Part shown: positions 609-21,700 of the stretch, piece after piece | How the letters are laid out: every line of letters starts with the position of its first letter | Position numbering within the stretch: the first letter of the stretch is position 1 | Assembly: GCF_000012285.1 (NCBI RefSeq) | Contig: NC_007181.1 | Location: 2,100,001 to 2,132,000 of the forward strand | Direction: 5' to 3' | Length of the DNA stretch: 32,000 nt | From: Sulfolobus acidocaldarius DSM 639 | Lineage (GTDB): Archaea; Thermoproteota; Thermoprotei_A; Sulfolobales; Sulfolobaceae | Made by a program: the position numbers and the translations under genes | Notes under the pieces: generated by a model | What the model saw: the letters and a program-made list of their open reading frames with translations, nothing else | Databases searched by the model: none | What the model was told of the DNA's origin: nothing

Positions 609-610
609 TC

Positions 611-1051
611 TCAACTCACCACTATGAGAGTTCCTTTCATGGTGTAATGACCAGGACCGCAGAATTCAGCACACCATATATCATATGTGCCTGGCGTCTT
701 CACCACTATATAGAAGTCGTACACATATCCAGGGATAGCCTCAAACTTAAACCCTAACTGCGGTATATAGAACGCATGAATGACATCCTTTGACTGTATT
801 TCCAGCAAATAGGTCTGATTAGCCTTAAGCACTAGCTTGTCTATAGTGGTAGTTCCGTTAGGATATACAAACTCCCAAGCGTATTGAAAAGCTATGACCT
901 TAATAGGTATCGCATCTTGTTTCTGTTGCGCTGACAAATAATTACCACTGTTTATAAGAGCTAAATATCCATCCGATATAACACCTAATACGATTAAAAC
1001 AACTGCTGCAAGAACTATAGTTGTTAATTCTAATATTCTACCTCTTTCCAT
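611..1051 (-). CDS. soxH: Quinol oxidase subunit II with a CuA centre (SoxH)
   Basis: Complete CuA signature: H-x34-C-x-E-x-C-x3-H-x2-M, i.e. VIHAF followed 34 residues later by CAEFCGPGHYTM. There is an N-terminal TM anchor. The ATG at 1051 is preceded by GGTGA (1062..1058); the track start at 1057 is TTG. Confidence 0.9.
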   Translation of the reverse strand: MERGRILELTTIVLAAVVLIVLGVISDGYLALINSGNYLSAQQKQDAIPIKVIAFQYAWEFVYPNGTTTIDKLVLKANQTYLLEIQSKDVIHAFYIPQLGFKFEAIPGYVYDFYIVVKTPGTYDIWCAEFCGPGHYTMKGTLIVVS

Positions 1052-2558: not shown

Positions 2559-2563
2559 ATTAA

Positions 2564-3316
2564 TCACCCATTACTACATGAAGGATTATTTGGAACCGAA
2601 TAACTATATCTTGGATCATACAGTAAGTTATCTTGAGGTGTAGTTCTTGGTATTCCGGCACTGAAGTATGGTGCATTCGTTCCAACTGCATATATATCCC
2701 CTGTAGAACTATCGTAGTCAAGTATAACGATTGGAAGTGGTCTAGGTGCTGGACCCGAAACTACAACTCCACCGTCCTTTAATGCATATATTGAACCGTG
2801 ACATGGACAGTGTAAATCAGCGCCTTTAGCATACAATCCAGGATCAGACTCACTGGAGACTATAACCTGAGCAGGGAGTTGGCAACCTAAGTGTACACAT
2901 ACATCAGAAAATGCAAATATTGTACCGTTTGGACCAACACCCTTAATAGTTTGTATTTGACCTAAAGGACCTGCATATTTGCCATAGTAAGGATTAGGAA
3001 TCTCTGTAATTTGTTGACCTGTTAACGCTTGTAGGTCAACTAAAAAACAGGGCTCATCAGTCAGAGGATATGCGAAGAAATAAACTGCACAGCCAGAGCT
3101 CTTAATCTGTTGTTGTACTTGTTGTATGTTAGCTACCTTATATCTAGGAAATCCAGCTAAGCCATCCGTGTTATCCGCCACTAAGTATTTTTTTGAGAGC
3201 GAACCTAGTTCACTATAGAAATAACCTACATAATCTAATGCAGGTTTTATAACTGGAGCAACTGCTATAGCAGCCCCTACAAGCAGATACAATCTTAAAA
3301 ATGTCCTTCTGTCCAT
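2564..3316 (-). CDS. soxF: Rieske [2Fe-2S] protein (SoxF)
   Basis: Rieske boxes CVHLGC and CPCHGS. The N-terminus MDRRTFLRL carries a twin-arginine signal and a hydrophobic anchor. It is the first gene of the minus-strand operon. Confidence 0.9.
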   Translation of the reverse strand: MDRRTFLRLYLLVGAAIAVAPVIKPALDYVGYFYSELGSLSKKYLVADNTDGLAGFPRYKVANIQQVQQQIKSSGCAVYFFAYPLTDEPCFLVDLQALTGQQITEIPNPYYGKYAGPLGQIQTIKGVGPNGTIFAFSDVCVHLGCQLPAQVIVSSESDPGLYAKGADLHCPCHGSIYALKDGGVVVSGPAPRPLPIVILDYDSSTGDIYAVGTNAPYFSAGIPRTTPQDNLLYDPRYSYSVPNNPSCSNG

Positions 3317-3338
3317 TGATTATTAATATTATATCATG

Positions 3339-3346
3339 TTTTTAAG
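3339..3346 (-). promoter_or_regulatory. TATA-like box for the soxFGHI operon
   Basis: The minus strand reads CTTAAAAA, centred about 27 nt upstream of the soxF ATG (3316). This spacing fits a leaderless archaeal transcript. Confidence 0.4.
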
Positions 3347-3430
3347 TTTTACGACAAAATTTTCTAACATAAAATTCTGTTAATTTAAAAAATAGGTGAC
3401 GGATAATTCGAAAGTTAGATAACTATTAAA

Positions 3431-3440
3431 TTTAAATTTA
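3431..3440 (+). promoter_or_regulatory. TATA-like box for soxE
   Basis: TTTAAATTTA is centred about 26 nt before the ATG at 3461 but only about 11 nt before the ATG at 3446. This favours 3461 as a leaderless start. Confidence 0.4.
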
Positions 3441-3445
3441 AGTAT

Positions 3446-4060
3446 ATGTATCTAAATTTTATGAAGGCTCAAAGTTCTGTTTTGCCTGTTGTAGTCGGAA
3501 TTTTAGTTGTAATAATAGCAGTAGCCGTAGGAGTTTATGTCTACAACCAATATGTTATGCTGTCCTCACCCTCTGCTAGTAGTAGTACAGGCACAAGTAC
3601 AGGACCTAGTAAAATCTCCATACCATATAGTAGTAGCAATAAAACTGTTTTTTTGACCATAGTAGTTGAATCTTCAAGTAACGTTAATCAGTTCAACTTT
3701 AATGGCACTTCATCAGGAAGCTTAGTAATATATATACCAGCAGGATCTACAGTAATTGTAAAATTCATCAATCAAGAATCACTGCCTCATAATCTTGTAC
3801 TTTTACAAAATTCCACGCCTACACCACAAAGCCCAGAAATAAGTAGTGATGGAAAAATAATAGACATAGTGGGTGCAACAACTAGCAACTACGACGTAAA
3901 CGGGATATCAGGAGGTGCTTCGGCTGAAGGGGTATGGGGACCAATAAGCGCAGGGGATTATATGCTAGTATGTGGAATACTTGGTCACGCTGCTTCAGGA
4001 ATGTGGGCAGTTTTGGTAGCCTCAAATAATGTAACAGCTCCTTATGCAGTGATTGATTAA
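3446..4060 (+). CDS. soxE: Sulfocyanin, a membrane-anchored type-1 blue copper protein (SoxE)
   Basis: N-terminal TM helix, a Ser/Thr-rich linker ([16 protein letters not shown]) and a cupredoxin C-terminus with the ligand pattern H...C-x4-H-x4-M (LPHNLV ... [11 protein letters not shown]). The true start is probably 3461 (MKAQSS...), judged from TATA spacing. Confidence 0.85.
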
Positions 4061-4082
4061 GAAAAGCTGATATATATGATGA

Positions 4083-4093
4083 TTATTTTTATT
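4083..4093 (+). terminator. Oligo-T tract after soxE
   Basis: TTATTTTTATT lies 23 nt after the soxE stop. Archaeal termination commonly uses T-runs. This is a weak call. Confidence 0.25.
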
Positions 4094-4704
4094 GAAAGCT
4101 AAATAACTCGTACTTATTGATTTTTGCATTAACTGTGACTCTTTCTTAATTAAATAGTAAAGCAATCTACACAGTATTCCTACTCAAAGTTTAAATTAGA
4201 ACTAATGAGACCAATTATTTTACGTTCTAATCTATCGTAAACTTAAGGTAATTAAGGTAAAACTGTGACTTAATAACACATACTGATTGTTAACTTATAA
4301 TATTGATTTTCAAAAATAGTAAATCATGAATTATGTATTATAAGATAAATAAGTTTAAATACGATTCTAGATTAAAACATCGAATCGGAAATTCTAAAAA
4401 TACTTATTGGTATATAAAGCTTTATCTACAATTAAAGATTTATAATCTTCTACAACTAGAATTAAAAAGTAATATGTAATACATTAAATTCAATTAAATT
4501 CTTCTTAGAAGTTTCTGCATTAATTAATGATTAATAATGTAGTCCTCCTTTACTAGTCTACATTTGAATGATGAAAAGATAAGAGAGCTAATCCTAAAAA
4601 TATGGTTAGAGTCATTTTTATAAAATATATTAATCTTTTATTATTAGATACTAAATTCAATATAAATACAAAGGGTTTCAGACATTAGATTTACTTAATA
4701 AAAA

Positions 4705-4714
4705 TTTAAAAATA
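4705..4714 (+). promoter_or_regulatory. TATA-like box for soxM
   Basis: TTTAAAAATA is centred about 28 nt before the soxM ATG (4738), and there is no spaced Shine-Dalgarno site. The transcript is therefore leaderless or nearly so. Confidence 0.45.
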
Positions 4715-4737
4715 AAAACTAGTATCTAATAAGTGAG

Positions 4738-7104
4738 ATGAACATAAAAAGAATTCTCAAAGTTGCACTTTACACTACTAATGCGAGTGACGTAGGACAG
4801 ATGTATATAGTATTAGGTATAGTCGCCCTTATTATAGGATCAGTAAATGCTGCCCTAATAAGAGATCAATTATCGTTCAATAATCTAAACGCTGTAGACT
4901 ATTATGATGCAGTAACCCTTCACGGGATATTTATGATATTTTTCGTTGTAATGCCATTAAGTACAGGGTTTGCTAATTATCTGGTTCCTAGAATGATAGG
5001 TGCGCATGATTTATATTGGCCAAAGATTAACGCTTTATCCTTCTGGATGTTAGTGCCCGCAGTAATACTAGCAGCTATTTCACCACTCCTGGGTGCGGTA
5101 GATTTAGGATGGTATATGTATGCCCCATTGTCTGTTGAAACAACGGTGAATTACGGACTAGGGACAAATTTGATACAAATTGCATTAATTCTTTCCGGAT
5201 TATCTTCCACTTTGACTGGTGTAAACTTTGTAATGACAATTACCAAGATGAAGAAAGTTCCCTATCTTAAGATGCCTCTTTTCGTATGGGGATTTTTCAC
5301 TACTGCAATACTAATGATTATAGCCATGCCTTCATTAACTGCAGGTTTAGTTTTCGCTTATCTGGAGAGACTATGGGGAACACCATTCTTTGATTCTGCT
5401 CTAGGTGGAAGTCCTGTTTTATGGCAACAATTATTCTGGTTCTTCGGCCACCCAGAGGTTTACATATTAATATTACCCGCTATGGGATTGGTAAGTGAAT
5501 TATTGCCAAAGATGGCTAGAAGAGAGATATTTGGATATACTGCTATAGCTTTATCCTCGATTGCAATAGCGTTCCTAAGTGCGTTAGGAGTATGGATGCA
5601 TCACATGTTTACAGCAATCGATAATACACTTGTTCAGATCGTATCATCAGCCACAACTATGGCAATTGCTATACCCTCAGGAGTTAAGGTTCTGAACTGG
5701 ACAGCTACACTATATGGTGGGGAAATAAGGTATAAGACACCTACAATATTGCTTATATCATTTATCGTAATGTTCTTATTAGGGGGAATTACTGGAGTAT
5801 TTTTCCCATTAGTACCAATTGACTACGCATTAAATGGGACATATTTCGTGGTAGGACATTTCCACTACATGGTTTATGCAATACTCTATGCTCTTCTCGG
5901 TGCCTTATTCTACTACTTCCCGTTCTGGAGTGGAAAGTGGTATAATGACGATTTAGGCAAGACTGGTGCAATATTGTTAGTAGCTGGAACGTTTTTAACA
6001 GCTACTGGAATGTCAATTGCTGGTATACTGGGTATGCCAAGAAGGTATGCAGTTATACCCAGTCCCATATATGACCCATTCCAATTCATGGCTAGTGTAG
6101 GTGCAGTTTTAACTGGTATAGGGCTATTTATATTAGCAGGAGTACTAGTTCATGGCGTTTTCAGAGGGAGAGCTGTTAACGGAGTAGATCCTTGGGATAA
6201 CATTTCCGTGAAATTACAGGACTTCTTTATAAAACCCGTAAAGTTACCGTTGAGCTTTGGTAAATCACTAGATGGAGCTTTTGATGAAGAGTACCATGGA
6301 ATTAAATTCCCATATTACAGTGTCTTAGGATTATTCCTATCATTTATACCCTTAGGTTTTATGTTCATACTGATTGGTCTAATACCTATAGGGATAGTAC
6401 TACTACTAGCATTCATGGGTGTTGGACTATATTGGGGATACGATCAGTGGTTCAAACCTATGCAACCTCCTCCACATTTTTATGCAGACGGAGGTGTACC
6501 TGTAACCAATTCAGTTAATAACTCAATTTCACCATCACTTGGAATTGCATCAATGAGGGATGCGAGAAGTGCTGTACTATGGTTTATATTAGCTGAAGTA
6601 ATACTGTTTGGATCTTTCATAGGTGGTTACGCTTTTATAATGAGCCCTGTTACTAATCCATTATCTTATGTAAATAATATTGTGCCAGCTGTAGAAGTCT
6701 TCCCATTACCCGCAATTATGACCGCAATATTACTTTCGAGCTCAATACCTGCTCACATAGCATATGAGTATTTCAAGAAAGGAAACGTAAAGATGTTTAG
6801 AAACTTAGGACTATTGACTATGGCTATGGGTCTCACATTCCTAGGTGGACAAATATATGAATTCACCCACTACATCCACTTCATCCCACAAGACTCAGCA
6901 GCTTCATCATTCTTCTTTGCGACAGTGAGCTTACACGGCTTCCACGTAATAATGGGATTAGTAATATGGGCATTTATGATGTTAAGAATTCGTAAAGGCT
7001 TTATACCATATGCAGGTTCAGTGGCAGCAACGTACTATTGGCACTTCGTAGATGCCGTATGGGTAGTGGTGTTTAGTACATTCTATTTACATTTGATTGT
7101 CTAG
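4738..7104 (+). CDS. soxM: Heme-copper quinol oxidase, fused subunit I + III (SoxM)
   Basis: 788 aa with subunit I signatures [13 protein letters not shown] (the CuB His pair) and GHFHY (heme ligands). The C-terminal hydrophobic domain ends in the subunit III-like [12 protein letters not shown]. The I+III fusion is as published for SoxM. Confidence 0.95.
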
Positions 7105-7120
7105 TATTGGGGATAAATAA

Positions 7121-7678
7121 GTGAAAAATAGCAATTTTTTTATAATTATATCGGTTTTTTTAATAATAATTACAATTAATCCATATACTGAGACCTACAT
7201 GTCTATAAATCCTATACCTTATATGTTAGCACACTATTCTTTGTACGCTTCAGGTATACTACTTGCCTACTTCGTTTATGACAGACTAAAACCACTTAAC
7301 AAATACATCTCATTAGTTATCGGAATATTTTTAGCTGTGACTTGGCACATTCCTTTCTTCTTCAATTTAGGTGTATATAATTTATGGATAAGGTTAATTG
7401 AGGAATTATCACTGTTTATAGGTGGTTACTTTATGGGACACAGTATTAAGGGGCTGAGCAGAAACTTTAACCTATTTCTCCTGGCGCTCTGGATGATAGC
7501 TGACACTTACCTTTCAGCTCTTCTTATGATTTATCCTTCCTTATATACCACACTATATAATACGCAGAGTCTACAATACCTTGGCGTAATAATGTTTCTC
7601 ATGATGAATACACTAGTTGTTTATCTGTTGCTTCAATACGTAATTAAGATATTCAAAGAGGAAAAGATGTTCATATAA
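7121..7678 (+). CDS. Polytopic membrane protein of unknown function, probably co-transcribed with soxM
   Basis: 185 aa with about 5-6 TM helices. The GTG start lies 16 nt after the soxM stop and 7 nt after GGGGA (7109..7113). It resembles, from memory only, the small archaeal DUF1404-type membrane proteins. No catalytic motif was recognised. Confidence 0.55.
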   Translation: MKNSNFFIIISVFLIIITINPYTETYMSINPIPYMLAHYSLYASGILLAYFVYDRLKPLNKYISLVIGIFLAVTWHIPFFFNLGVYNLWIRLIEELSLFIGGYFMGHSIKGLSRNFNLFLLALWMIADTYLSALLMIYPSLYTTLYNTQSLQYLGVIMFLMMNTLVVYLLLQYVIKIFKEEKMFI

Positions 7679-7921
7679 CAGTAGAAATTCCTAATCTTGT
7701 TGCAGAGGAATAGTTGGAACTTAATTGGGTGAAATGGGATTTTATTTAGTATAGTCTTTCTTTGGACATAATGTGTAAATCTAAAAGTTAGAGACAACAT
7801 TAGAGCAGCTGGCTCATAAGCCTTTACTTTTATCTTTTAACTCTAAGAGACGCTGTCTCCTCTTAGAAAAGCAGAAGACTAAGATAATTGATATAAATAC
7901 CAGTTAATTTAATAATTAACA

Positions 7922-8333: not shown

Positions 8334-8570
8334 TTAGTCGTTAAAAAGCTTGTAACATTCTTCTGATTCCACGACTAAGTACACTCTTTCTCTTGTATCG
8401 TCGAGACAAGGCATGGCTTTTATTACTTTTTTCTCCTTTAGGAGTTTTAGGGCATAGTAAAGAGTCCTTGTGGGAAGTTGAGTTTCTTCCTTTAATTCTC
8501 TAAATCTAAGGCTCCTTCTCTCCATAAGTATTTTTAGAACTAGCTTAGCAGAGGGCGGAAGATTTTCCAT
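8334..8570 (-). CDS. Small winged helix-turn-helix DNA-binding protein (MarR/ArsR-like)
   Basis: 78 aa with the pattern LRFRELKEETQLPTRTLYYALKLLKEKKVI, typical of a wHTH recognition helix plus wing. It has two Cys residues (MPCLD, EECYK). It lies 18 nt downstream of the rhodanese gene, with a GAGGGA Shine-Dalgarno-like site in between. Confidence 0.6.
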   Translation of the reverse strand: MENLPPSAKLVLKILMERRSLRFRELKEETQLPTRTLYYALKLLKEKKVIKAMPCLDDTRERVYLVVESEECYKLFND

Positions 8571-8588
8571 ATAATATAATCCCTCATT

Positions 8589-9014
8589 TTATTTCTTAAG
8601 AGTTTCGCTTGGTGCAACTTTCTTCAATATGTAGTCTTTCCAAAACATTCCATTGCTGTCCATACCATAAGTTGTCTCATATCCCATGTTCATCCAAAGC
8701 TCCATACCACCTAACATATTATACACTGTCTTTCCTTCGAAGAGTTCAGGTTTAGAGTTAATTAACCAAGTAGTTCTATTTGCGTGTTCACATACTAGCA
8801 CTATTTGTTTTGTTTCTAATTTAGGTAGTAATATATCACAATACTCCATTGGAATTAATATTGCTCCCGGTATATGATGGTCTTCATATTCCCACGGATT
8901 TCTTATATCAACTATTGTCACTTCTCCTTTCTTATAGAGTTCTCTCACCACTGAGGGAGGAACGTTCTTTACGTTTTTGTAATAAGGAGTTCTCCTCTCA
9001 GTTATTTGAACCAT
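8589..9014 (-). CDS. Single-domain rhodanese (sulfurtransferase)
   Basis: Rhodanese fold pattern (VTIVDIRNPWEYEDHHIPGAILIP) and the active-site loop C-E-H-A-N-R-T. The ATG at 9014 has a minus-strand TTTATAT box (9044..9038) centred 27 nt upstream. The track start at 9035 is TTG. Confidence 0.8.
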   Translation of the reverse strand: MVQITERRTPYYKNVKNVPPSVVRELYKKGEVTIVDIRNPWEYEDHHIPGAILIPMEYCDILLPKLETKQIVLVCEHANRTTWLINSKPELFEGKTVYNMLGGMELWMNMGYETTYGMDSNGMFWKDYILKKVAPSETLKK

Positions 9015-9124
9015 CGGACTAAATCTAATAGACAAGAATATAAATGTATCGCATAATACAAGTTTTACAAAATATATTTAATTATTATTATAATTACTTG
9101 AATAAGAAATTACATTAGATAAGC

Positions 9125-9132
9125 TTTTATTT
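9125..9132 (+). promoter_or_regulatory. TATA-like box for the SelD-like gene
   Basis: TTTTATTT is centred about 27 nt before the ATG at 9155. It lies in the 119-140 bp divergent region shared with the rhodanese promoter. Confidence 0.4.
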
Positions 9133-9154
9133 CTAGCCTGAGTAGGAAAAACCT

Positions 9155-10549
9155 ATGAGCATTGATAAGATGGTTGACAGATTCAGAGAGAATTTAGAGA
9201 AATATAAGAGAATGGGATTAAATCCTTTGTCTTTGGCAACAGGTTGTGCAGTGAAGGTTGACCTTATTGACACTGTATACCCAGCAATAAGTAAGATAAG
9301 ACCTGCATTAGAGAAACTGAATATAGAGATAACTCCAAGGGAAGATGCAGACATATTTATCTCAAGAAAGTTGACCACGAGAAAGAGGATAATCAACTCA
9401 GGTGAATTTGATGCCGATAGAGCAGTAGCCCTAATCCAGGTTAATCAGAACACTGCAAGTAGCCCAGAAAAATTTGGGGAGTTTCTACTGAGAGTGTACA
9501 CTTCAATTAAAACTAATAGGAAACTGACAATAGGCAAAGGGCATTCCATAGTGACCACAAATCCCAAAGGTGAGGTGGCAGTGCTGGATTTATTCAAATT
9601 AGACGGGGATAAGGAAAACTCATACACTGTCACAAACAATGATACAATTCAGATCGTGGATCCTCTGGACGATCCAGGATCCCAGGTTCAAGTTGATGTA
9701 GCTATTTCGAACTCCTTAAATGATCTGTTTACTAAGGGGGTCTTTCAGGATATTAAGATTGTTCCTGTGGTTGATGCTCCTTTAGAGGAGTTAAGGACAA
9801 AACTCCTGGAGAACTACAAAGTATTCTCTGAGAAATATTCATTTGAGATGGAAAATGATATTCAGCCTAAAGTAGGTACATTAATGATTGGGGCAACGGT
9901 TATAGGTAAGTCTGATCACGAATTGCCAACTTTTTATAATAACGTGAACGAGAAAATGGAAATTCTAGTTACGAGACCAGTAGGTGAATTAACTCCCATA
10001 AACTTATCCATGTGGATATTAGCGGTTCCTGAACTAGTAGAAGAACTTGAGAAGAGAGGAATTACCATAAAGAGGGTTGAAGATGCTAAGAGAAAGGCAT
10101 TAGATTACATGAAGAAACCTAATATTGACGTGGCGAAAACCATTTACAATTACTTACCTCCCTTTGGAAAACAGTTTGATGAGAAAAGTCACATAGCTAT
10201 TACTACTGATGTCACAGGACCTGGCTTATTTGTAGTTAAGGAGTTTGCTAAAAAGGCGAATGTTGACGTCGAAATAACTGACATTCCAGTAATCGATTCA
10301 GATATTCATGAGTTCTCAACAGAGAATTTTATAATACCAAATTCTACTGCTGGAACTAATGGTGCTATAGTCATATTCGCCCACAATGATGTGATAAACC
10401 AGTTATATGAAGATCTGAAGAAGATAGGGCAAGAACCAAGGGTTATAGGTAAGGTGATACGTAGAGGAGATGGTATTGTATACGCACCACAAATAGTTAC
10501 AAAATACATTCATAGGGCTAATGTACTTAAGGAGTTTAAGTTAAAGTAA
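9155..10549 (+). CDS. SelD-like (selenophosphate synthetase-related) PurM-superfamily ATPase, atypical
   Basis: 464 aa. The N-terminal loop A-T-G-C31-A-V-K34-V has the Cys-x2-Lys spacing of E. coli SelD (Cys17/Lys20). Core matches read by eye are [28 protein letters not shown] (SelD: [23 protein letters not shown]), TDVTGPGLF (SelD: TDVTGFGLL) and [11 protein letters not shown] (SelD: QTSGGLLLAV). It is about 100 aa longer than bacterial SelD. Confidence 0.7.
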
Positions 10550-10752
10550 AGTATATATATTTCTACTTATACATATTTTATACAATGTGAGTTAAAAAAT
10601 TTACGTTGAAAAATAATTAGGAGAAGCAGTAATACTCCTGAAAAGAGTTGAGTTCGTCCACATTTTTCAATGTAGATTTTTCACAAATTTATGCTTTAGA
10701 AGTTAAAAATATTTTAATGATTAAATAAATACTTATGAATATATTATAAAAT

Positions 10753-11598
10753 GTGTATCCGCCGGAGTTTAGTTATGTAAGGGCAGAAAGCCTGCAAGAA
10801 GCTCTAAAATTCCTGGAAGGAAACGATAACACTAGACCACTAGCTGGTGGACAGAGCCTAATCCCTATGTTAAAACTGAGAGTTCTGTCACCTGATTATA
10901 TACTAGATATTAACAGGCTCAATGAACTGAATTACGTAAAGACAAGCCTAAATGGCGTAAGTATTGGAGCTCTGACCAGATATCACGACATATTGAGTAA
11001 CGATATTGTGAAATCTAAAGTACCACTAATGCATCATGCGACAAGAACAATAGGAGACATGCAAGTTAGAAATATGGGAACAATAGGTGGGGCAATTTCT
11101 AATGCAGACCCTGCATCTGATATGCCAGTCGTATTAACTGCATTAAATGCAACCATTATTCTTTCCTCAGCTTCAGGAAGCAGATCTGTGAAAGCCCTTG
11201 ATTTCTTTAAGGGACCATTTACAACAGACACGAATAAAGGAGAATTGGTAACTCAGATTGAGGTTCCAGTATTAGACGGGTATAAGACTGTATACAAAAA
11301 AGTTGTAAGGAGAGCCGGAGACTATGCCCTGGCTTCAGTTGCACTAGCAATCAAATTAAAGGGAAATGAGATAGAGGATATTAAATTAGCCTATGGAGGA
11401 GTTCATGATAAACCATTCAGAGCCATGGAAGTTGAAAAGAATGTGATTGGAAAGAAGTTGAACGATGACTTAGTGAAAGATATTGCAAGTAAAGTTTCTA
11501 GTCAAATAAATCCTCCCTCCGATCACAGGGGAAGTTCCTGGTATAGGAGGGAAGTTGTGAAAGTTCTAACCATGAAGGCATTTAAGGAGGTGGCTTAA
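10753..11598 (+). CDS. cutB: Molybdenum hydroxylase FAD-binding medium subunit (CoxM/CutB type)
   Basis: The N-terminus [33 protein letters not shown] and [15 protein letters not shown] are the hallmarks of this subunit. GTG start, with the TATA-like TTAAATAAAT (10721..10730) centred about 27 nt upstream. Confidence 0.9.
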
Positions 11599-11600
11599 AG

Positions 11601-12092
11601 GTGTTAGTTGTTAAGAAAGGAGAAGGGGTAAAAGTAAGAGTAAGAGTAAACGGAGTATGGTATGAAAAGTATGTGAGCCCGAGAACACTACTAGTGGATT
11701 TCATAAGAGATGAGTTAGGTCTAACGGGGACTAAAGTTGGCTGTGATACAACGACCTGTGGTGCGTGTACAGTAATAATGAATGGTAAATCAGTTAAATC
11801 CTGTACAGTCTTGGCTGCACAGGCTGATGGTGCAGAAATAACAACAATTGAAGGTTTATCAAGTGATTCCAAGTTACACCCAATTCAAGAAGCTTTTAAA
11901 GACAACTTTGCACTACAATGTGGATTCTGTACTGCTGGTATGATTATGCAAACTTACTTCTTCCTAAAGGAGCACCCAAATCCCACAGAAGAGGAGGTAA
12001 GGGATGGGATACACGGTAATATTTGTAGATGCACAGGTTATCAGAATATAGTTAAAGCTGTTCTAGATGCTTCCAAGAGGTTGAGATCATGA
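11601..12092 (+). CDS. cutC: Molybdenum hydroxylase [2Fe-2S] small subunit (CoxS/CutC type)
   Basis: Two 2Fe-2S motifs: C-x4-C-x2-C...C ([12 protein letters not shown]...SC) and CGFCTAGM...CRCTGY. The GTG start lies 9 nt after a strong GGAGGTG Shine-Dalgarno site (11586..11592). Confidence 0.9.
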
Positions 12093-14335
12093 CCTACACG
12101 GGTAAATCCATAAAAAGATTAAACGACGACAAATTCATCACAGGAAGAAGTAACTATATTGATGATATAAAAATACCGTCCCTTTATGCAGGCTTTGTGA
12201 GAAGTCCATATCCCCATGCTATCATAAAGAGAATAGACGCTACTGATGCTCTGAAAGTCAACGGGATTGTGGCTGTATTTAGTGGTAAAGATATCAATCC
12301 AATGTTGAAAGGTGGTGTTGGAGTACTTTCAGCATATGTAAACCCAAGTCTATTCAGGTTTAAGGAGAGGAAGGCGTTTCCAGAAGATAACAAAGTAAAA
12401 TATGTTGGAGAACCTGTAGCAATAGTGATTGGACAAGATAAGTATGCTGTTAGAGATGCTATTGACAGAGTGAATGTAGAATATGAACAATTAAAGCCAG
12501 TAATAAAAATGGAGGATGCTGAGAAAGATGAAGTAATAGTTCATGATGAGCTGAAAACCAATGTGTCCTATAAGATACCGTTTAAGGCAGGAGATATTGA
12601 GAAAGCGTTTAGTCAAGCTGATAAAGTAGTGAAAGTTGAGGCAATAAATGAGAGACTAATTCCAAACCCAATGGAGCCAAGAGGTATTCTCTCAGTTTAT
12701 GATGGAAATTCACTTTCAGTGTGGTATTCTACACAAGTACCACATTTTGCACGTAGTGAGTTTGCTAGAATTTTTGGAATACCTGAAACTAAGATAAGGG
12801 TAGCAATGCCTGATGTAGGTGGGGCATTCGGTAGTAAAGTTCACATTATGGCAGAAGAGTTAGCAGTAATTGCATCCTCGATATTGCTAAGAAGACCTGT
12901 AAGGTGGACAGCAACAAGAAGTGAGGAGATGTTAGCAAGTGAAGCTAGAAGTAATGTGTTTACCGGAGAAGTCGCAGTAAAGAAAGACGGAACTGTCTTA
13001 GGTATCAAGGGTAAACTATTGCTCGATCTAGGCGCCTACCTCACGCTAACCGCAGGAATCCAACCTACTATTATACCCGTAATGATACCTGGACCATACA
13101 AGGTTCGTGACCTGGAGATAGAGAGCACAGCAGTTTACACTACAACTCCTCCAATAACCATGTATAGAGGAGCTAGCAGACCTGAGGCTACATATATAAT
13201 TGAGAGAATAATGAGCACTGTTGCAGACGAGTTAGGTCTAGATGACGTGACAATCAGGGAAAGGAATCTCATTGACCAGTTACCATATACTAATCCATTT
13301 GGACTGAGGTATGATACAGGAGACTACATAAGAGTGTTCAAAGATGGTGTAGCTAAGCTAGAATATAATGAGCTAAGAAAATGGGCTCAGCAAGAAAGAA
13401 GTAAAGGACATAGGGTAGGAGTTGGACTAGCGTTCTATCTAGAGATATGTAGCTTTGGTCCCTGGGAATATGGCGAGATTAAGGTAGACAATAAAGGAAA
13501 TGTGTTAGTAATAACTGGAACTACTCCTCATGGTCAAGGGACTGAAACTGCTATAGCTCAAATAGTCGCTGATGCGTTACAAATACCCATAGAGAAAATA
13601 AGAGTTGTATGGGGAGATACCGATATTGTAGAAGGTAGTTTTGGAACATATGGCTCAAGGTCACTAACTATAGGTGGCTCAGCTGCGTTAAAGGTTGCTG
13701 AAAGAGTCTTAGATAAAATGAAGAGGGCTGCAGCTAGCTACTTTAACGCTGATGTACAGGAGATAAGATATGAAAACGAAGAATTCTCGGTGAAGAATGA
13801 TCCAAGTAAGAAAGCAAGTTGGGATGAGATAGCCAGCTTAGCTACAACAAAAGAACCTATAGTAGAGAAGATATATTATGAAAATGACGTTACATTCCCA
13901 TATGGTGTTCACGTAGCTGTAGTTGAGGTTGACGACTTAGGAATGGCCAGAGTAGTAGAGTATAGGGCTTATGACGATATAGGTAAAGTCATTAACCCAG
14001 CCTTGGCAGAGGCACAAATACATGGCGGAGGAGTTCAAGGAGTAGGACAAGCATTATACGAGAAGGCTATAATTAACGAAAACGGTCAACTAAGTGTAAC
14101 TTATGCAGACTATTATGTTCCCACTGCTGTAGAGGCTCCAAGATTTATATCTTACTTCGCAGATAAATCTCACCCATCCAATTACCCAACAGGAACCAAA
14201 GGCGTTGGAGAGGCTGCTTTAATTGTGGGACCTGCAGCTATCATAAGGGCTATTGAAGATGCAGTAGGCGCAAGATTTACAAAAACGCCAACTCCTCCAG
14301 AGGAAATCTATAAAGCGATTATGAGTAAAAAGTAA
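12089..14335 (+). CDS. cutA: Molybdopterin-binding large subunit of an aldehyde-oxidoreductase-type molybdenum hydroxylase (CoxL/CutA type)
   Basis: 748 aa with GGAFGSK, an active-site loop [10 protein letters not shown] (not the AYRCSFR of true CO dehydrogenase) and C-terminal KGVGEAA. ATGA overlap with cutC. The three-subunit composition matches the glyceraldehyde oxidoreductase described from Sulfolobus, but the substrate is not determinable here. Confidence 0.9.
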
Positions 14336-14370: not shown

Positions 14371-14623
14371 CCTACCCTTCTTATTATAACCTAAAGGATG
14401 GTTATGGCTCTATTTCCCTTATTCTCACTTCAAACCACATGTTTTACATAAAAGAACCCAAATTTACTTTTCAGGATAACTCAGTCTAAAGTCCAGTTCT
14501 ACGACAAAGTTCTTTTCTCTTACTGATAAGAGAGTAATTTGAAATAATTCTTTTCTTTTATCCACTCCTAATTGATAATAAAAACACTTAAATACTCTCC
14601 ATCATCATATATTATTGATCCTT

Positions 14624-15058
14624 ATGGCAGACATAAAAAATAGTAAAACTGCAGAAAACTTAAGGCACGCATTTATGGGAGAAGCAATGGCAAACAGAAG
14701 ATACCTATTCTTCGCCAAGACTGCTGATGAAGAAGGATATCCTGAATTAGCTCAATTAATGAGAAGTATAGCTGAAGGTGAAACAGCCCACGCATTCGGA
14801 CATTTAGACTACATAAAACAAGGAGGAATTGGTGATCCAGCCACAGACAAACCAATAAGGACATTAGAAGAAATGTTACAATCTGCAATAGCTGGAGAGA
14901 CTTACGAATGGACACAGATGTACCCTGGTTATGCAAAGCAAGCTAGAGAAGAGGGATTTGAAGACGTTGCAGAGTGGTTCGAGACTTTAGCAAGAGCTGA
15001 GAAGAGCCACGCAGAGAAATTCACCAAGGCTTTAGAGTTACTTAAGGGAGGCAAGTAA
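14624..15058 (+). CDS. Sulerythrin-type rubrerythrin (diiron four-helix bundle, no rubredoxin domain)
   Basis: About 144 aa with two E...E-x-x-H diiron motifs (GEAMANRRY/EGETAH and GETYEW/AEKSHAEKF) and no C-terminal CxxC rubredoxin module. The track start at 14615 is TTG; the ATG at 14624 gives MADIKNSKTAENL. The stop overlaps the next gene's start (TAATG at 15056..15060). Confidence 0.85.
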   Translation: MADIKNSKTAENLRHAFMGEAMANRRYLFFAKTADEEGYPELAQLMRSIAEGETAHAFGHLDYIKQGGIGDPATDKPIRTLEEMLQSAIAGETYEWTQMYPGYAKQAREEGFEDVAEWFETLARAEKSHAEKFTKALELLKGGK

Positions 15059-16251
15059 TGTATACTTTAAATCCAAGTAATCCTTCTTTTTTTAATTCTG
15101 AGAAATTATACTCTGAATTCATTAGACAAGCAACAGTTTGTCATGGCTGTAGAATGTGTGTAAACTATTGTGATTCCTTCCCTGTATTGTTTAAAAAAAT
15201 CGACAGTAAAGAACAGGATCTAAACAAGCTTACCCTGGATGACTTATTTGACGTTGCGTCAAAGTGTTTCCACTGTAAACTTTGTTATGTGAATTGCCCC
15301 TATGTCCCCCCACATGAATTTAACATGGATTTTCCCAGCCTAATGGAATGGGCTTGGTTATATTACAAGAGCAAAACTGGACTCAGAATTAAAGATTACA
15401 TGTTTGAAATGTTGGATGCAACCAACTTAGCAAGACCTTTAGTGAAACATTTAATGCAAAAAGGAAAAGAAGTTCTTGGACTACATAAAGACGCCCCCAC
15501 TTTGCCCGTTTCTGAAAAAGGTTTGAAGGAAAAAGTTAAGCCCAAGAAAATAGAAAATCCCAAGGCTAAAGTTGCACTATTCACTACTTGCCTTGTGGAT
15601 AACTTCTTTACAGATATAGGTGAAGATCTAATAGAAGTCTATAACTCTTTAGGTATAGAAGTTATAATACCTAACTTTTTGTGTTGCGGTGCTCCAATGC
15701 TTGATGCTGGAGATGTTAACAGACTAAAGAAGAATGCAGAACATAATATGAAATTAATTGAAGAGCTTGTGAATAAGGGCTATGACATTGTTGTACCGAT
15801 CCCTACATGTGCTCTAATGATCAAAGAATACCATAGGGTTCTTGATAAAAAAGTACCTAAAGTTTATGACTCTATTGAGTATCTACAAAAGCTGAAAAAT
15901 GAGGGCAAAATTGAATTAAATGCCAAATTTGACAAGACCATATACTATCATCCACCTTGCCATTTAAAGTACTTGCAAGTTGGTCTGCCAGGACCACGAT
16001 TACTTAGAACTCTAGGAGCCAAGGTCGAGATATCAAATAAGGGCTGTTCAGGGATTGACGGAGGATGGGGTTTAAGGAATTACGATACAGCTAGAAGAGT
16101 TGGAAGTAAAATGATGGAGTCGTTTAAGCAAAGTAAAGCTGATGTATTCATGACTGAGTGCCCACTTGCTGGGCTTCAAATTGAAAAAGCCTCTAATAAG
16201 AGGCCGTTACATCCTATACAGTTATTAAAGGAGGCGATGAAAAACGGTTAA
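15058..16251 (+). CDS. Fe-S oxidoreductase with two 4Fe-4S ferredoxin motifs and CCG domains (HdrD/GlcF/GlpC-like)
   Basis: CHGCRMCVNYC and CFHCKLCYVNCP are both C-x2-C-x2-C-x3-C motifs. There is a CCG motif (NFLCCGAP) and a second Cys-rich domain (HPPCH...GCSG...ECP). A GGGAGG Shine-Dalgarno site lies upstream. Confidence 0.8.
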   Translation: MYTLNPSNPSFFNSEKLYSEFIRQATVCHGCRMCVNYCDSFPVLFKKIDSKEQDLNKLTLDDLFDVASKCFHCKLCYVNCPYVPPHEFNMDFPSLMEWAWLYYKSKTGLRIKDYMFEMLDATNLARPLVKHLMQKGKEVLGLHKDAPTLPVSEKGLKEKVKPKKIENPKAKVALFTTCLVDNFFTDIGEDLIEVYNSLGIEVIIPNFLCCGAPMLDAGDVNRLKKNAEHNMKLIEELVNKGYDIVVPIPTCALMIKEYHRVLDKKVPKVYDSIEYLQKLKNEGKIELNAKFDKTIYYHPPCHLKYLQVGLPGPRLLRTLGAKVEISNKGCSGIDGGWGLRNYDTARRVGSKMMESFKQSKADVFMTECPLAGLQIEKASNKRPLHPIQLLKEAMKNG

Positions 16252-16345
16252 GTTAAGTGTAGAAGAATTCCTTCCATGGAAAGAGTATGAAAAGGTAAGG
16301 AGAGAGAGAGTTAAAAGGATAGTTGAAATAAAGAAGATAAGAAGA

Positions 16346-16822
16346 GTGAGTTTAGGAGATAGATTATCATTACTATTTGAGAACAGAGACACAGTAGCGC
16401 ACCAAATACAGGAGATGATATATCTAGATAAGTTATATAAGAAGGAGGATATTCTCAGGGAAATACAGGTCTACTCTACGCTGTTACCATGCAACGGAAA
16501 ACTTAAGGCTACACTCTATATTCATGCATATGACTTCAAGGACTTAGACTGGGTATTTGACAATCTAGGTGGAATTTATAATGAGGTTTACCTGAAAGTG
16601 GGAAGTAAATTAATACAAGGGGAGCCTGAGGGAGGGAGGGAACAGGGTAGAGAGTTCTCAACGGTTCAATACCTGATTTTTGATCTTCAGGGAGAAAAGA
16701 GTACAGATATGGAGTTACAAGTACTTCACAAGAACTACAAATACACAGTGAAACTGGATAAGAAACTAGCAGAGGACTTGATTAAAGACGCCTATGAAGT
16801 TTGTGAGCAAGTTATAGGTTAA
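16346..16822 (+). CDS. DUF3501-like protein (as called from the GTG; conserved-looking N-terminus lies upstream without a start codon)
   Basis: 158 aa from the GTG at 16346. The same frame is open from 16241 and encodes a further 35 residues (KTVKLSVEEFLPWKEYEKVRRERVKRIVEIKKIRR) that match my recollection of DUF3501 N-termini. It is the third gene of the rubrerythrin / Fe-S / DUF3501 string. Confidence 0.65.
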   Translation: MSLGDRLSLLFENRDTVAHQIQEMIYLDKLYKKEDILREIQVYSTLLPCNGKLKATLYIHAYDFKDLDWVFDNLGGIYNEVYLKVGSKLIQGEPEGGREQGREFSTVQYLIFDLQGEKSTDMELQVLHKNYKYTVKLDKKLAEDLIKDAYEVCEQVIG

Positions 16823-17693: not shown

Positions 17694-18719
17694 ATGAGAT
17701 TAGGAAAGATAGACGCAAAAGTATTCTCCAGTGTGATTTATCCGCATCTGGGTAAGATAAGAGAGGAAGTCATAGTACCACCACAAAATGGTGTAGATAC
17801 AGGCGTAATCGACCTGAATGATGGAAGGGTTTTAGTAGTTAAAACGGATCCCGTATTTATTGTACCTCAACTTGGATTCAGAAAATCTGCCTGGTTTGCA
17901 GTCCATATCTTAGCGAGTGATGTAATGACTTCAGGAATTCCGCCACAGTATGCGCTAATTGATCTTAATCTTCCCCCCAGTATAAAAGACGATGAATTTC
18001 AGGATATGTGGGTAGGAATGCACGAAGCTATGAAAGAAATAGGGGTAATGGTAGTTGGTGGGCACACGGGTGTATATGAGGGTACAGATTATCCTATGAT
18101 TGGAGGCTTTTCGATGCTAGGTATCGGAAGTAAAGAAACTGTCGGAATGCCATCAAAGGTTAGGGTAGGTGATGATGTGATAATGACAAAGGGACCTGCA
18201 ATCGAGGCAGTAGCGTTACTGACCAATTTACATCCAGAGTACTTCAGACAGAGAACCAGTAGCAAAGAGCTCTTCGAAGATGCTTATAACTTATACTGGC
18301 AGATGAGTTGCTGGAAGGATGGGCTTATAGCTTCAAAGATTGGTATACACCTAATGCATGACGCTACCGAAGGAGGAGTCTACGGAGCATTAAATGAGAT
18401 AGCAAAGGTGACGAATAAGATGATAAAGATATATGAGGATAGATTATTCATTAGACCCAGCGTTAGGGAAATAACCAGAATAGTGGAGATTGACCCGTGG
18501 TCATCAATAAGTGAGGGTACCATGATTATTGTAAGTGATAAGGGAGAGGAGATAAAGAGAGAGCTCATTCGAAATGGAATTGAGGCTGAAGTTATTGGAA
18601 AGATTGATAGTGGTGAGGGAGTGGAATTGGTAGGTAAGGATGGGGCTAAGACAAAAATAAATCCACCTGAAGAGGATCCTTTCTGGAGAGCCTTCTTTAA
18701 GCTATCTAAGGAAATGTGA
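17694..18719 (+). CDS. AIR-synthase-related / PurM-superfamily protein (HypE/ThiL/SelD-related orphan)
   Basis: 341 aa with PurM-type N-domain motifs (GVDTGVIDL...VVKTDPVF...[13 protein letters not shown]...VVGGHTG) and a C-domain ([14 protein letters not shown]). It lacks the C-terminal Cys motif of HypE. The TATA-like GATTTAAACA (17664..17673) is centred 26 nt before the ATG. Confidence 0.75.
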
Positions 18720-18780: not shown

Positions 18781-21700
18781 TTACTTTCTTCTGCCAATAA
18801 ATATAGCAACTATTCCTAATGCTAGTGCTATAATAGCAGCTATTAACGCTCCAGTGGCAATTGAGGATTGAGAGGACAATCTCGAGTCTAGTGTACTGGA
18901 AACCGACTGTAAATTGTTATTTAGGGTACTTGAAACCGACTGAATCTCGCTGTGAGCGGATTGTAAACCTTGATTTAATTGGTTGCTGAACGTCACATAG
19001 GTTGATGTCTTATTGAATAACCCTGTAGTTTGCTGAGCAACAACAGTCAATGTATAAGTACCGTCAGGATATTTTGTGGTATCGAGTTGATAGCTAAATG
19101 TTCCACTACCACTAAAAGTCGTCAATAACTGATTATCTAGGTATAGACTCACTTGCGATACTTGACTACCTGAGACGGTTATACCAATATTTACAGTACC
19201 CGTTAGATTACCTAAGGGAACATTTATTTGAATCGTGGGAAGTGATGGTGAGACACTGAGAATCTTAGAATTTATCTCTGAACTGATCTTGGAGTTAGTT
19301 AAGCCTGCACTATTAACGGTTGTGGATATTAGGTTAATATTACTATTTACTGCATTTATTGAGGCAACCTGTGAATTCACGATTGTAATATTAGCATTCT
19401 CGACGGTTATTGAGGACACATTAGAGCCCACAAGCATAAAGTTACCATTTGATAGAACTACGTTCTGGAGGATATTACTTCCTAAAACGGAGTTACCCGT
19501 TATATTTACGTTTCTTAAAACCATATTGTATAATTTCACGTTAGAGAGTGTCTGATTTTCCATTAGTGTATATGGAGTTACGTAAAAGGTATATGCAGAA
19601 CTTAAGTCATTTGTTGTAGGTACACCATCTGCAGAAACTCCTGAAATCAATATCTGGAATGGACCTGTGAAGTAAGTTAAACCTTTGAAATAGCTTAAGT
19701 TACCTAATGAGGAAGCTGATGGTATAGTGAAATTGCCCTCCCATAGTTGAATAGATGGATTGTAGAATAATGGTATATTGACATTCGCACTTATATTTGA
19801 ATAGCTGGAACTAAATGTCATTGGATAAACTGTAGCTGAATACATCCCATATTTTACAGGTGTTCCATTTGGATATGTAATATTAGCATAGACGTATACT
19901 GTTTGACCTTGATATACATACTTTTCAATATTTATTTGTGGTACACTGTACTTTGGTACAACATAAATCTGTCCGTAATAGAAACCTGTGAATACTTGAC
20001 CCAATGTTGACGAATTATAACTTGCGAATAATAATATCGTGTATAGACCAGCATTTAGGTTCTCTGGAACTGGTATGTAGCCATAGTACTGACCTAATGG
20101 ACTATAAGTGACTAGTCCCTGACTGACTACTTCACCCTGCTGGTTGACTAACTCAGCTTTTATTGTGATTCCCTGTGCTATATTTGGATCAGGAATGTTT
20201 GTCAATGGTGTTCCTTGTATTATTATTGACTGACCACCTGCAACAGCACCTGGTTCAGCAATAACTTGCGGTCGTATGAAGAGAGACTGTAAATAAATTC
20301 CGTTAGAGAATGCTACTATACCATAAGCGTTGTTCACGTAAATTAGATCATCACCCACTGTCAGGTTAGCCGGTAAAATACCTACCCATTCAGACGCTTT
20401 ATTATTATATACTAAAGTAATGTTAGTTAGGAATGTATATGCATTATCTGTAATATTATAAGAGTAAACAGAGGCTTCGACTGTAAAGTTAGTAGGTGCA
20501 GGATTCCCGTTAATATCTGTGACAACTGCCTGAACTGGGTTTATACCAGAGTAGAATGGAGTCATAGTTACCGGAGATAAGAAAGTCACGTAATAACCTG
20601 AAAATGTTTCAGTGAAACCATAGCCACTTGTTCCTTGAGAACTTCCATATACTACAACTGACAAGATTCCATTAGCAGTTGAAGGAAGGGTAAACTGTCC
20701 TGTCCATAAGCCAAGGCTTGAATTATAAGTTAGAGGTATGTTAGTCACATTTCCATATAAGTCCTCTAATACTGCATTGAAGCTACCTGATGAAACAACG
20801 GTTCTATTAATAGTTATATTAGCTACTACAGTCATTGTTTCTCCAGGCATGAATGTACTCTGAGATCCCTGAGGACCTAATAATTCAACCATGATAGATA
20901 GAGAACTCTTAAGTTCTGATCTGTGCGACTTTAAGTACTGCGCAAACTCTCCTGCATTCAGAGCTCCCCAACCTGTGGCTAAATTGTAGCCGTAACTAGA
21001 TGTCCATGGAATATTATATCCGAATGTTATTGGGTAGAATATTTTAGAATATAACTGAGGATTCTCGCCTATCTGATATAATAGCGGATTTATAAGCCCT
21101 AGACTATGGTTAACATAACTCATAACAGCTACGAGCATTCCTGCTAGTAATGGAGAAGCTTCACTTGTTCCTCCGGTTATGAGTGTCTGATTGAATCCAC
21201 CTATTATATATATTCCAGGGTAAACATTAGCATTCGCCGAAACGTCTGGACCAAGTCTACCATTTGGATATGTTTTAGGAGAAGTTATACCCCATTGATA
21301 CCAAGGTTTAGGTTCTACAATACTTACACCACCAGTGCCTCCTCCGTAGTTCACTCCATTAGGCACAAATCCATAATTGGACCATGCAGTCTGATAGAAT
21401 GACCCATTGGGGAACTGAATGTATGTTGTAGTTCCTCCAGCTGAAAGAACGTAGGGTGATGTAGATGGATATCCAGGTGTTCCTAAAGGACCATTACTAT
21501 AACCTGAACCGCCTACATCTCCGCTACTTGCTATAAATGTTATGCCCTCCACTGAGCCTAGTGCGTAGTATACATCAGTGAGAGCTATGTTGGTATAATA
21601 AATTGGGGCAGGATAACTAGATAATGAACTTTCAGATATGCTGAAACTTTGAGATATTATATTAACTTTATGTTGCTGATCAATATATGCAATTACTGCT

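Follow-up and report, generated by a model that had tools for sequence, protein, structure and literature searches.

The SelD-like gene beside the glyceraldehyde oxidoreductase operon of Sulfolobus acidocaldarius probably belongs to a separate archaeal sulfur-relay module

In a stretch of 32,000 nucleotides from Sulfolobus acidocaldarius DSM 639 (NC_007181.1, positions 2,100,001 to 2,132,000; hereafter the window), a gene for a 464-residue SelD-like protein lies between a divergent rhodanese gene and the molybdenum hydroxylase operon cutB-cutC-cutA. Two described systems come close to this arrangement. The SelD-like family was described by Li et al. 2014 (BMC Genomics 15:908, PMC4210487), who named the S. 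acidocaldarius protein, reported a conserved cysteine, an acylphosphatase fusion in Thermoproteales and SirA(TusA)-like, Prx-like and rhodanese neighbours, and already proposed a thiophosphate-synthesis model. The family was found in all Sulfolobales examined, was placed in "S-reducing" Sulfolobales and Thermoproteales, and its hosts have no known selenium trait. The other system is the selenium-dependent molybdenum hydroxylase trait of Haft and Self 2008 (PMC2276186), a paper cited in a first-pass annotation of this DNA, in which an orphan SelD accompanies YqeB/YqeC. As in that trait, a SelD-type gene stands here beside a molybdenum hydroxylase of the xanthine oxidase (XO) family, in a genome without the selenocysteine (Sec) and selenouridine (SeU) traits. 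In contrast to it, the window has no YqeB/YqeC-like genes, CutA fails the models for selenium-dependent hydroxylases, the SelD-type protein is of another family, and the adjacency is specific to one clade. Both the SelD-like family and the molybdenum enzyme, a glyceraldehyde oxidoreductase (GAOR), were thus already known, and the link between them is the only unpublished element of the first-pass proposal, which had the rhodanese and the SelD-like protein supplying activated sulfur or selenium to the neighbouring enzyme.

The locus is probably made of two separate functional units, a sulfur-relay module and a cutBCA operon with its own promoter-like box, with no module dedicated to maturation of the molybdenum cofactor. 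The first unit, a winged helix-turn-helix (wHTH) and rhodanese gene pair divergent from the selD-like gene, would represent a conserved archaeal sulfur-relay module in its most reduced form; the second, cutBCA, comprises the GAOR1 genes and would stand apart from the sulfur relay. The gene set and coordinates proposed initially were all recovered. The minus strand carries the wHTH gene (8334-8570, 78 aa, weak winged-helix matches) and the rhodanese gene (8589-9035; PF00581, E=4e-14), separated by a divergent intergenic region (9036-9154) from the selD-like gene on the plus strand (9155-10549, 464 aa, Saci_2268 by position). A spacer of exactly 203 bp, as first reported (10550-10752), leads to the plus-strand genes cutB (10753-11598, Saci_2269, FAD or M subunit), cutC (11601-12092, Saci_2270, S subunit with two [2Fe-2S] clusters) and cutA (12089-14335, Saci_2271, molybdopterin or L subunit). 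The 464-aa product is 100% identical to the S. acidocaldarius protein, which is present on 57 contigs, and the molybdenum enzyme has been purified; chance open reading frames (ORFs) are thereby excluded for both. Among ORFs of at least 90 aa in the window, no match to the XdhC, NifS/IscS or YqeB/YqeC families was found, in agreement with the first reading.

NF038049, the family of Li et al. 2014, includes the SelD-like protein as a full member. It matched this equivalog model (SelD_rel_HyperS, "SelD-related putative sulfur metabolism protein") with 716.7 bits against a cutoff of 250, over residues 9-462 of 464. The true SelD models TIGR00476 and PRK14105 gave 17.5 bits (cutoff 125) and 52.5 bits (cutoff 291), below their equivalog cutoffs, the HypE model gave 18.6 bits, far under its cutoff, and neither the ThiL and PurM models nor Pfam gave any match. 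A profile search of 1.84 billion representatives returned 181 clusters at 50% identity, of which 93 reached E<=1e-30, with SelD-sized proteins only in the weak tail. Hosts include Desulfurococcales, Acidilobales, Pyrodictiaceae, Ignisphaera, Thaumarchaeota and others, beyond Sulfolobales and Thermoproteales. Some members were also located on contigs binned outside Thermoproteota, namely L028 (406 kb, from an Acidobacteriota-labelled metagenome-assembled genome, MAG), L073 (Methanoperedens-labelled), L019, L024, L032 and L064, which may reflect real transfer or mis-binning.

The gene neighbourhood was then compared across the family. A scan of one genome per species gave 78 loci encoding family members, to which Saccharolobus E5-1-F, Sulfurisphaera tokodaii, Metallosphaera javensis, M. 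yellowstonensis, M. sedula, Stygiolobus and Sulfodiicoccus were added, for about 84 distinct loci. Neighbour families were obtained by unbiased clustering (blastp, ORFs of at least 60 aa) and iterated hidden Markov model searches, and were counted within 3 kb of the selD-like gene in 82 loci. TusA was present in 66 of them, mostly on the same strand and abutting, followed by a YeeE/YedE-type transporter (28/82), rhodanese (26/82, including 13 of 15 Thaumarchaeota and 6 of 15 Sulfolobaceae) and DsrE (10/82), so that 71 of the 82 loci had some sulfur carrier. Genes of the XO family appeared in three loci and, as a scar, in one more, all in Sulfolobaceae, and in none of the other 67. An acylphosphatase gene, missed by the blastp clustering, was found by a targeted search prompted by the Sulfodiicoccus locus. 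It is a separate gene in 40 of the approximately 84 loci (gap of -31 to +31 bp) and fused in 2, and it abuts the 3' end of the selD-like gene, for example at 7419-7691 in locus L087 and at 11347-11628 in L016.

The conserved core of the module is tusA-selD-like-acyP. This is the layout of most Thermoprotei, including Sulfodiicoccus, and elsewhere the core is often extended by another tusA, a transporter of the YeeE/YedE type or a tandem rhodanese. Thaumarchaeota have a second layout, selD-like-tusA-tusA-tandem rhodanese. In the third, found in Sulfolobaceae (Sulfurisphaera, Stygiolobus and RB850M), a rhodanese gene diverges from tusA, a type III SQR-like flavoprotein gene, dsrE, a DUF1641 gene and the selD-like gene, in that order; it is rearranged in Saccharolobus and Candidatus Acidianus. 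S. acidocaldarius has the most reduced form, only the rhodanese (with wHTH) diverging from selD-like. The tusA-to-DUF1641 block is absent from the window, consistent with the reported lack of sqr, sor and tqo in S. acidocaldarius (PMC11323534). Four points extend the picture of Li et al. 2014: the acylphosphatase mostly has a gene of its own next to selD-like, beyond the Thermoproteales fusion; the host range is wider; there are three lineage-specific operon layouts; and the protein carries an insertion, about 82 residues long, that contains a GKGHS motif. Two further neighbourhoods were recorded: in S. tokodaii a PF10262 Rdx protein (SelW-like fold) lies near the selD-like gene (L080, 3657-3896), and in Sulfodiicoccus TauE, DoxD/DoxA (thiosulfate:quinone oxidoreductase) and a Cys/Met-metabolism pyridoxal phosphate (PLP) enzyme lie nearby (L087, 8216-10334).

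The second unit is a biochemically characterised enzyme. All three gene products passed the glyceraldehyde dehydrogenase equivalogs, NF041018 (alpha) with 1295.7 bits for cutA (cutoff 790), NF041019 (beta) with 436.4 bits for cutB (cutoff 350; domains PF00941 and PF03450) and NF041020 (gamma) with 313.1 bits for cutC (cutoff 290; PF01799 and PF00111), in the gene order M-S-L. SaGAOR was purified from S. acidocaldarius and N-terminally sequenced, and its genes are Saci_2269/2270/2271 (Wakagi et al. 2016, PMC4726530). cutBCA is therefore GAOR1, the enzyme of Kardinahl 1999, with no difference from what PMC4726530 cites of that work. Other assignments of cutA were tried and rejected: aerobic carbon monoxide dehydrogenase (451-523 bits against cutoffs of 950-991), xanthine dehydrogenase (far below the model cutoff) and selenium-dependent hydroxylase (TIGR03311, 236.7 bits against 830.45; TIGR03313, 233.5 against 1101.9).

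With both units identified, the proposed delivery of sulfur or selenium to the enzyme can be weighed. It states that the rhodanese and the SelD-like protein make activated sulfur (thiophosphate) or selenium for the molybdenum centre of the adjacent GAOR, as a sulfido or selenido ligand or for the dithiolene, replacing XdhC/NifS-type maturation at least in Sulfolobaceae. The selD-like to cutBCA adjacency speaks for it to the extent that it is conserved across Sulfolobus and Saccharolobus: the same layout was found in the window and in Saccharolobus E5-1-F (L079), whose protein clusters at >=90% identity with S. solfataricus SSO2635 and with S. islandicus and S. shibatae proteins, and SSO2635 lies beside the S. 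solfataricus GAOR genes SSO2636/2637/2639 (PMC4726530). The lack of XdhC or NifS genes among the window ORFs is also in its favour, as is a 2026 review of sulfido ligands in which no archaeal sulfuration route is described. If true, the link would provide an archaeal route of sulfuration (or selenation) for XO-family molybdenum enzymes, a step without described archaeal machinery.

The wider comparison argues against it. Besides the 67 loci outside Sulfolobaceae, XO-family adjacency is missing in Sulfurisphaera (S. tokodaii), Stygiolobus, Candidatus Acidianus, M. yellowstonensis and Sulfodiicoccus. In S. tokodaii the selD-like gene is part of a tusA operon, without any gene of the XO family within 8 kb, and yet three active GAORs have been purified from this organism, whose GAOR genes lie elsewhere. 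Locus L001, from a Saccharolobus MAG lineage, is a natural deletion of the molybdenum operon in which the selD-like gene is retained: at 4273-4476, residues 1-50 of cutB (68% identity) are joined to residues 726-748 of cutA, while the promoter-like box of cutB is kept and the SelD-like protein is intact at 464 aa. CutA is, as given above, far under the cutoffs for selenium-dependent hydroxylases. Finally, the GAOR2 structure 4ZOH (2.2 A), the only archaeal GAOR crystal structure, models molybdenum as bound by a pair of dithiolene sulfurs, two oxo groups and one water, without a sulfido ligand, an arrangement like that of Desulfovibrio gigas aldehyde oxidoreductase (PMC4726530). Since this structure lacks the sulfido ligand, the premise that this class of enzyme needs a sulfurase is weakened; it is not decisive, as 4ZOH is GAOR2, possibly in a desulfo form (such forms crystallise readily), and GAOR1 has no structure of its own.

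Metallosphaera adds a complication. In M. javensis and M. sedula (L083, 9376-11568; L085, 7325-9517) an orphan gene for a GAOR-type L subunit is convergent with the selD-like gene, with a 25-bp overlap. The encoded protein has 730 aa, is 41% identical to CutA and reaches 918.5 bits with NF041018 (cutoff 790). It sits between the selD-like gene and a DUF2203 gene, and M. yellowstonensis and S. tokodaii have the DUF2203 gene without the L subunit. This is a second, independent juxtaposition and counts for the delivery proposal. By a rough post-hoc estimate, the probability of two GAOR-L juxtapositions by chance is 0.005-0.06. A sink of activated sulfur in the molybdenum centre would, if real, explain both juxtapositions as well as the lack of XdhC/NifS-type genes beside cutBCA. 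A version in which thiophosphate is an activated-sulfur currency, with the molybdenum centre (sulfido or dithiolene) of GAOR-type enzymes as one Sulfolobaceae sink, is nevertheless a long shot, and dedicated delivery to the adjacent enzyme is equally improbable. Conservation of the adjacency is thus confirmed for Sulfolobus/Saccharolobus and, in independent form, for M. sedula and M. javensis, but fails in five other Sulfolobaceae groups and in all 67 loci outside the family, and the molybdenum hydroxylase is not supported as the target, apart from the weak Metallosphaera signal. The position of the selD-like gene beside cutBCA is most likely accidental, a matter of gene order in one lineage, with synteny inherited in the Sulfolobus/Saccharolobus clade, because the family travels with TusA, rhodanese and acylphosphatase across archaea and not with molybdenum enzymes. 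Another neighbourhood of a sulfur gene and a GAOR L subunit was noted in S. tokodaii, where by locus-tag numbering STK_24850 (sqr, PMC11323534) neighbours STK24840, the orphan L subunit of GAOR3 (PMC4726530).

The spacer between selD-like and cutB agrees with two units. The window has a AATAAATA box at 10724-10731 (-29 to -22 relative to the cutB GTG). Both this box and the start of cutB are conserved in Saccharolobus E5-1-F and in the L001 scar locus, and T5 tracts follow the selD-like stop at approximately 10664-10682. Because of this conserved box and these tracts, selD-like and cutBCA appear to be separate transcription units, and a cutB with its own promoter-like box is one more point against a dedicated maturation module.

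How the SelD-like protein might act was approached through its structure. An AlphaFold2 model from a 16-sequence alignment had a predicted local distance difference test score of 92.8 and a predicted template modelling score of 0.91. In a Foldseek search of this model against the PDB, ranks 1-13 were all selenophosphate synthetases (SPS1/SelD; E=5e-19 to 7e-15), with HypE, ThiL and PurM structures behind them. The modelled protein has the fold of the PurM superfamily and is structurally closest to SelD, which bears out the initial description of a SelD relative. Sequence comparison was much less sensitive: a PDB sequence-profile search with the family alignment gave nothing significant (best HypE, E=0.25), and hhalign against Escherichia coli SelD aligned only residues 182-380, with a probability of 17.5% and E=0.0014.

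The catalytic residues could nonetheless be mapped onto E. coli SelD as C31/C17, K34/K20, D163/D68, N186/N87, D190/D91 and D352/D227, and by eye R62-E-D64 of the SelD-like protein corresponds to R49-D-D51. The N-terminal part of this map relies on short local alignments, each weak by itself, and on motif identity; 32 and 4 of 500 shuffles reached the observed scores. G30-C31 is invariant in the family down to about 20% identity, and a distant subgroup of 430-517 aa keeps it together with most other motifs. Position 31 has a cysteine codon in all 83 evaluable loci, never TGA. The insertion of about 82 residues lies between D64 and D163, and its GKGHS motif is invariant.

Selenide, water dikinase (SelD/SPS; E. 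coli 3U0O, Aquifex aeolicus 2ZOD, human SPS1 3FD5) is thus the best structural match. It has in common with the SelD-like protein the N-terminal Gly-Cys-x-x-Lys loop and the Asp/Asn ligands of ATP and metal, carrier proteins bring the substrate to SelD and, as proposed, to the SelD-like protein, and in both cases YedE/YedF-like and flavoprotein neighbours occur. The SelD-like protein differs in its low identity (13-18%), the insertion and a longer N-terminal helix, and, unlike SelD/SPS, it has no Sec variants and its hosts lack the Sec and SeU traits.

The scheme proposed for the sulfur-relay module starts from what is directly seen, that is, family membership, fold, residue conservation and gene linkage; from there we infer substrate, product and direction of sulfur flow by analogy. 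A persulfide carrier (rhodanese here, TusA elsewhere) would hand sulfane sulfur to Cys31 in a flexible G-C-x-V-K loop, and the SelD-type ATP site (D64, D163, N186, D190, D352, K34) would phosphorylate the sulfur so delivered. By analogy with selenide, water dikinase, the most likely products would be thiophosphate, AMP and Pi, and the acylphosphatase partner might act on a phospho-anhydride or thiophosphate product. Pairing of the SelD-like protein with a persulfide carrier (rhodanese or TusA) is supported by the divergent rhodanese in five Sulfolobaceae genera, the tandem rhodanese of Thaumarchaeota and the frequency of TusA, in line with the pairing first suggested for this locus. The thiophosphate idea is likewise reasonable, although not new, having been published in 2014 (PMC4210487). 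TusA and acylphosphatase accompany the family almost everywhere, which predicts an ATP-dependent reaction on sulfur bound to a carrier; its product may be thiophosphate, a metabolite not yet established in biology.

The closest described relays are those of thiosulfate uptake by YeeE/YeeD (TsuA/TsuB) and of TusA, DsrE and rhodanese in sulfur oxidisers (for example PMC4175335), since the same carriers and a PF04143 transporter surround the selD-like gene. These relays feed CysM, the sHdr complex or Dsr, and, unlike the SelD-like module, they have no known PurM-superfamily ATP-dependent enzyme or acylphosphatase.

The direction of flow could also be the reverse, the SelD-like protein activating free sulfide with ATP and loading TusA or rhodanese with persulfide for thio-cofactor, tRNA or Fe-S synthesis, in place of a cysteine desulfurase and with the molybdenum cofactor as one of many sinks. 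A housekeeping role of this kind is suggested by the occurrence of the family in all Sulfolobales examined (PMC4210487), by a CysM/CysK-like PLP enzyme linked to the selD-like gene in 10 loci, and by retention of the gene in S. acidocaldarius despite loss of the tusA-SQR-like-dsrE cluster at this locus and the lack of sqr, sor and tqo. It would also fit expression in aerobic heterotrophic cells that are not oxidising sulfur: the S. solfataricus orthologue SSO2635 is abundant in such cells (MASCOT 741; PMC2739297, Table 3). However, a YeeE/YedE importer and TusA often stand next to the selD-like gene, as if sulfur came in on the carrier rather than leaving on it, and the family, with its 181 clusters, is small and patchy for a housekeeping function. 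Reverse flow is therefore rather unlikely, though it deserves some weight. SSO2635 was the top-scoring protein of a two-dimensional gel spot stained with Pro-Q Diamond for phosphoproteins (PMC2739297); since the spot also held FadD-1, only expression of SSO2635 is established. The staining may reflect a phospho- or thiophospho-enzyme intermediate, or nothing. For Saci_2267 and Saci_2268, searching the literature under these locus tags turned up neither expression nor knockout data.

Several points weigh against reading the locus as a sulfur relay separate from the molybdenum enzyme. Many of the compared loci come from MAGs and are phylogenetically non-independent, and the separation of the two transcription units is derived from sequence features only. 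The two independent GAOR-L/selD-like juxtapositions in Sulfolobaceae exceed casual expectation and stay as an unexplained, weak residual signal. No published biochemistry on any member of the SelD-like family was found, and reviews of 2022 and May 2026 still treat its function as speculative. E. coli SelD is reportedly selective for selenide, so that identical catalytic residues leave a sulfide or persulfide substrate unproven. Moreover, the partners score best against selenium-linked subfamilies: the transporter gives 118.8 bits with YedE/FdhT and 101.1 with TsuA, the carrier gives 71.2 bits with YedF (cutoff 79) and 36.7 with TusA, and the flavoprotein neighbour matches the "Nterm_to_SelD" model.

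These similarities also feed the possibility that Thermoproteota and Thaumarchaeota have an unrecognised selenium-use trait, with the SelD-like protein as its divergent selenophosphate synthetase. The catalytic residues of SelD are all conserved, the flavoprotein resembles a domain fused N-terminally to some SelDs, and the Rdx-family protein in S. tokodaii would fit as well. All the selenium-linked neighbour matches are nevertheless below their curated cutoffs, no locus of the 83 has TGA at position 31, the host lineages have no known selenium trait (PMC4210487), and NCBI curators named the family as sulfur-related. Sulfur is favoured over selenium because of the universal cysteine, the hosts without a known selenium trait and the abundance of sulfur-specific neighbours (DsrE, SQR-like, DoxDA, TauE); a selenium enzyme is very unlikely.

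The rhodanese itself matched PF00581 with 53.3 bits (gathering score 22.2). Its six-residue active-site loop, C82-E-H-[AG]-N-R87, is invariant in six orthologues, which come from Sulfolobus, Saccharolobus, Sulfurisphaera, Metallosphaera and Stygiolobus and are always beside the selD-like gene or its operon. The true start is likely the conserved Met8 at 9014; the divergent spacer then measures 140 bp, as first reported, and it measures 119 bp from the listed TTG start. As an alternative, the first-pass annotation had taken the rhodanese for one half of a split SelU-type tRNA 2-selenouridine system; more specifically, the rhodanese would supply the N-terminal part of an archaeal 2-selenouridine synthase that works with the SelD-like protein. 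Weak local similarity to MnmH/SelU rhodanese domains (E from 1.6e-4 to 0.023) points in that direction, but the arch_SelU_Nterm model (TIGR04568) gave 19.8 bits against a cutoff of 200, over residues 32-63 only, no P-loop half was found among the window ORFs, and the best matches are generic (MoeB rhodanese domain, GlpE). The failed arch_SelU_Nterm score effectively refutes a split SelU, whose probability is negligible.

The 78-aa wHTH protein is encoded downstream of the rhodanese in the same direction and is conserved only in the Sulfolobus/Saccharolobus loci (window, L079, L001). Its Pfam matches (HTH_34, HxlR, TrmB, MarR_2) are all under the gathering scores, and it may regulate the divergent promoter region. 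There, a TATA-like TTTTATTT box at 9125-9132 (-30 to -23 from the selD-like ATG) is conserved with the two Saccharolobus loci. Directly upstream of the box, within window 9110-9132, S. acidocaldarius has the element TTAGATAAGC, and Saccharolobus (L079, L001) has the perfect palindrome GTTAGCTAAC. This putative promoter carries a candidate operator for the co-conserved wHTH protein.

The SelD-like proteins form a compact, strongly conserved orphan enzyme family, published in 2014, curated by NCBI and uncharacterised in 2026. What remains of interest is the chemistry of the tightly conserved TusA-SelD-like-acylphosphatase module and the genetic tractability of the minimal locus: S. acidocaldarius combines the most stripped-down form (rhodanese, wHTH and SelD-like) with a working genetic system, and is a practical place for testing both the thiophosphate and the molybdenum links.

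Other genes of the window were also inspected. A SoxM terminal-oxidase supercomplex cluster at 162-7678 (COX2-like protein, cytochrome b, Rieske protein, sulfocyanin SoxE, the 788-aa SoxM and DUF1404) occupies the place held in other Sulfolobaceae, upstream of the rhodanese, by the tusA-SQR-like-dsrE-DUF1641 block. Right after cutA, on the plus strand (14615-16822), lies a trio of genes for rubrerythrin, an HdrD-like protein (4Fe-4S dicluster and two CCG domains) and DUF3501, which is syntenic downstream of the selD-like gene in Saccharolobus L079 and L001; that a CCG-type disulfide reductase is encoded near the sulfur-relay module may be meaningful or merely coincidental. On the minus strand, 18781-22626 encodes a large sedolisin-type secreted protease of 1281 aa, which combines a pro-kumamolisin activation domain with a Big_7 domain at the C-terminus. 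A second PurM-superfamily protein (17694-18719, plus strand, 341 aa, AIRS and AIRS_C) was considered as a partner or paralogue of the SelD-like protein and rejected, as this HypE-like orphan does not resemble the SelD-like protein in any meaningful way. Its best match is HypE (80.5 bits against a cutoff of 251.6; 1.6e-12 with HypE in the PDB), and it has neither the C-terminal cysteine of HypE nor an N-terminal Cys-x-x-Lys. A copy of this protein, with 65% identity, is encoded 2.9 kb from the selD-like gene in locus L005.

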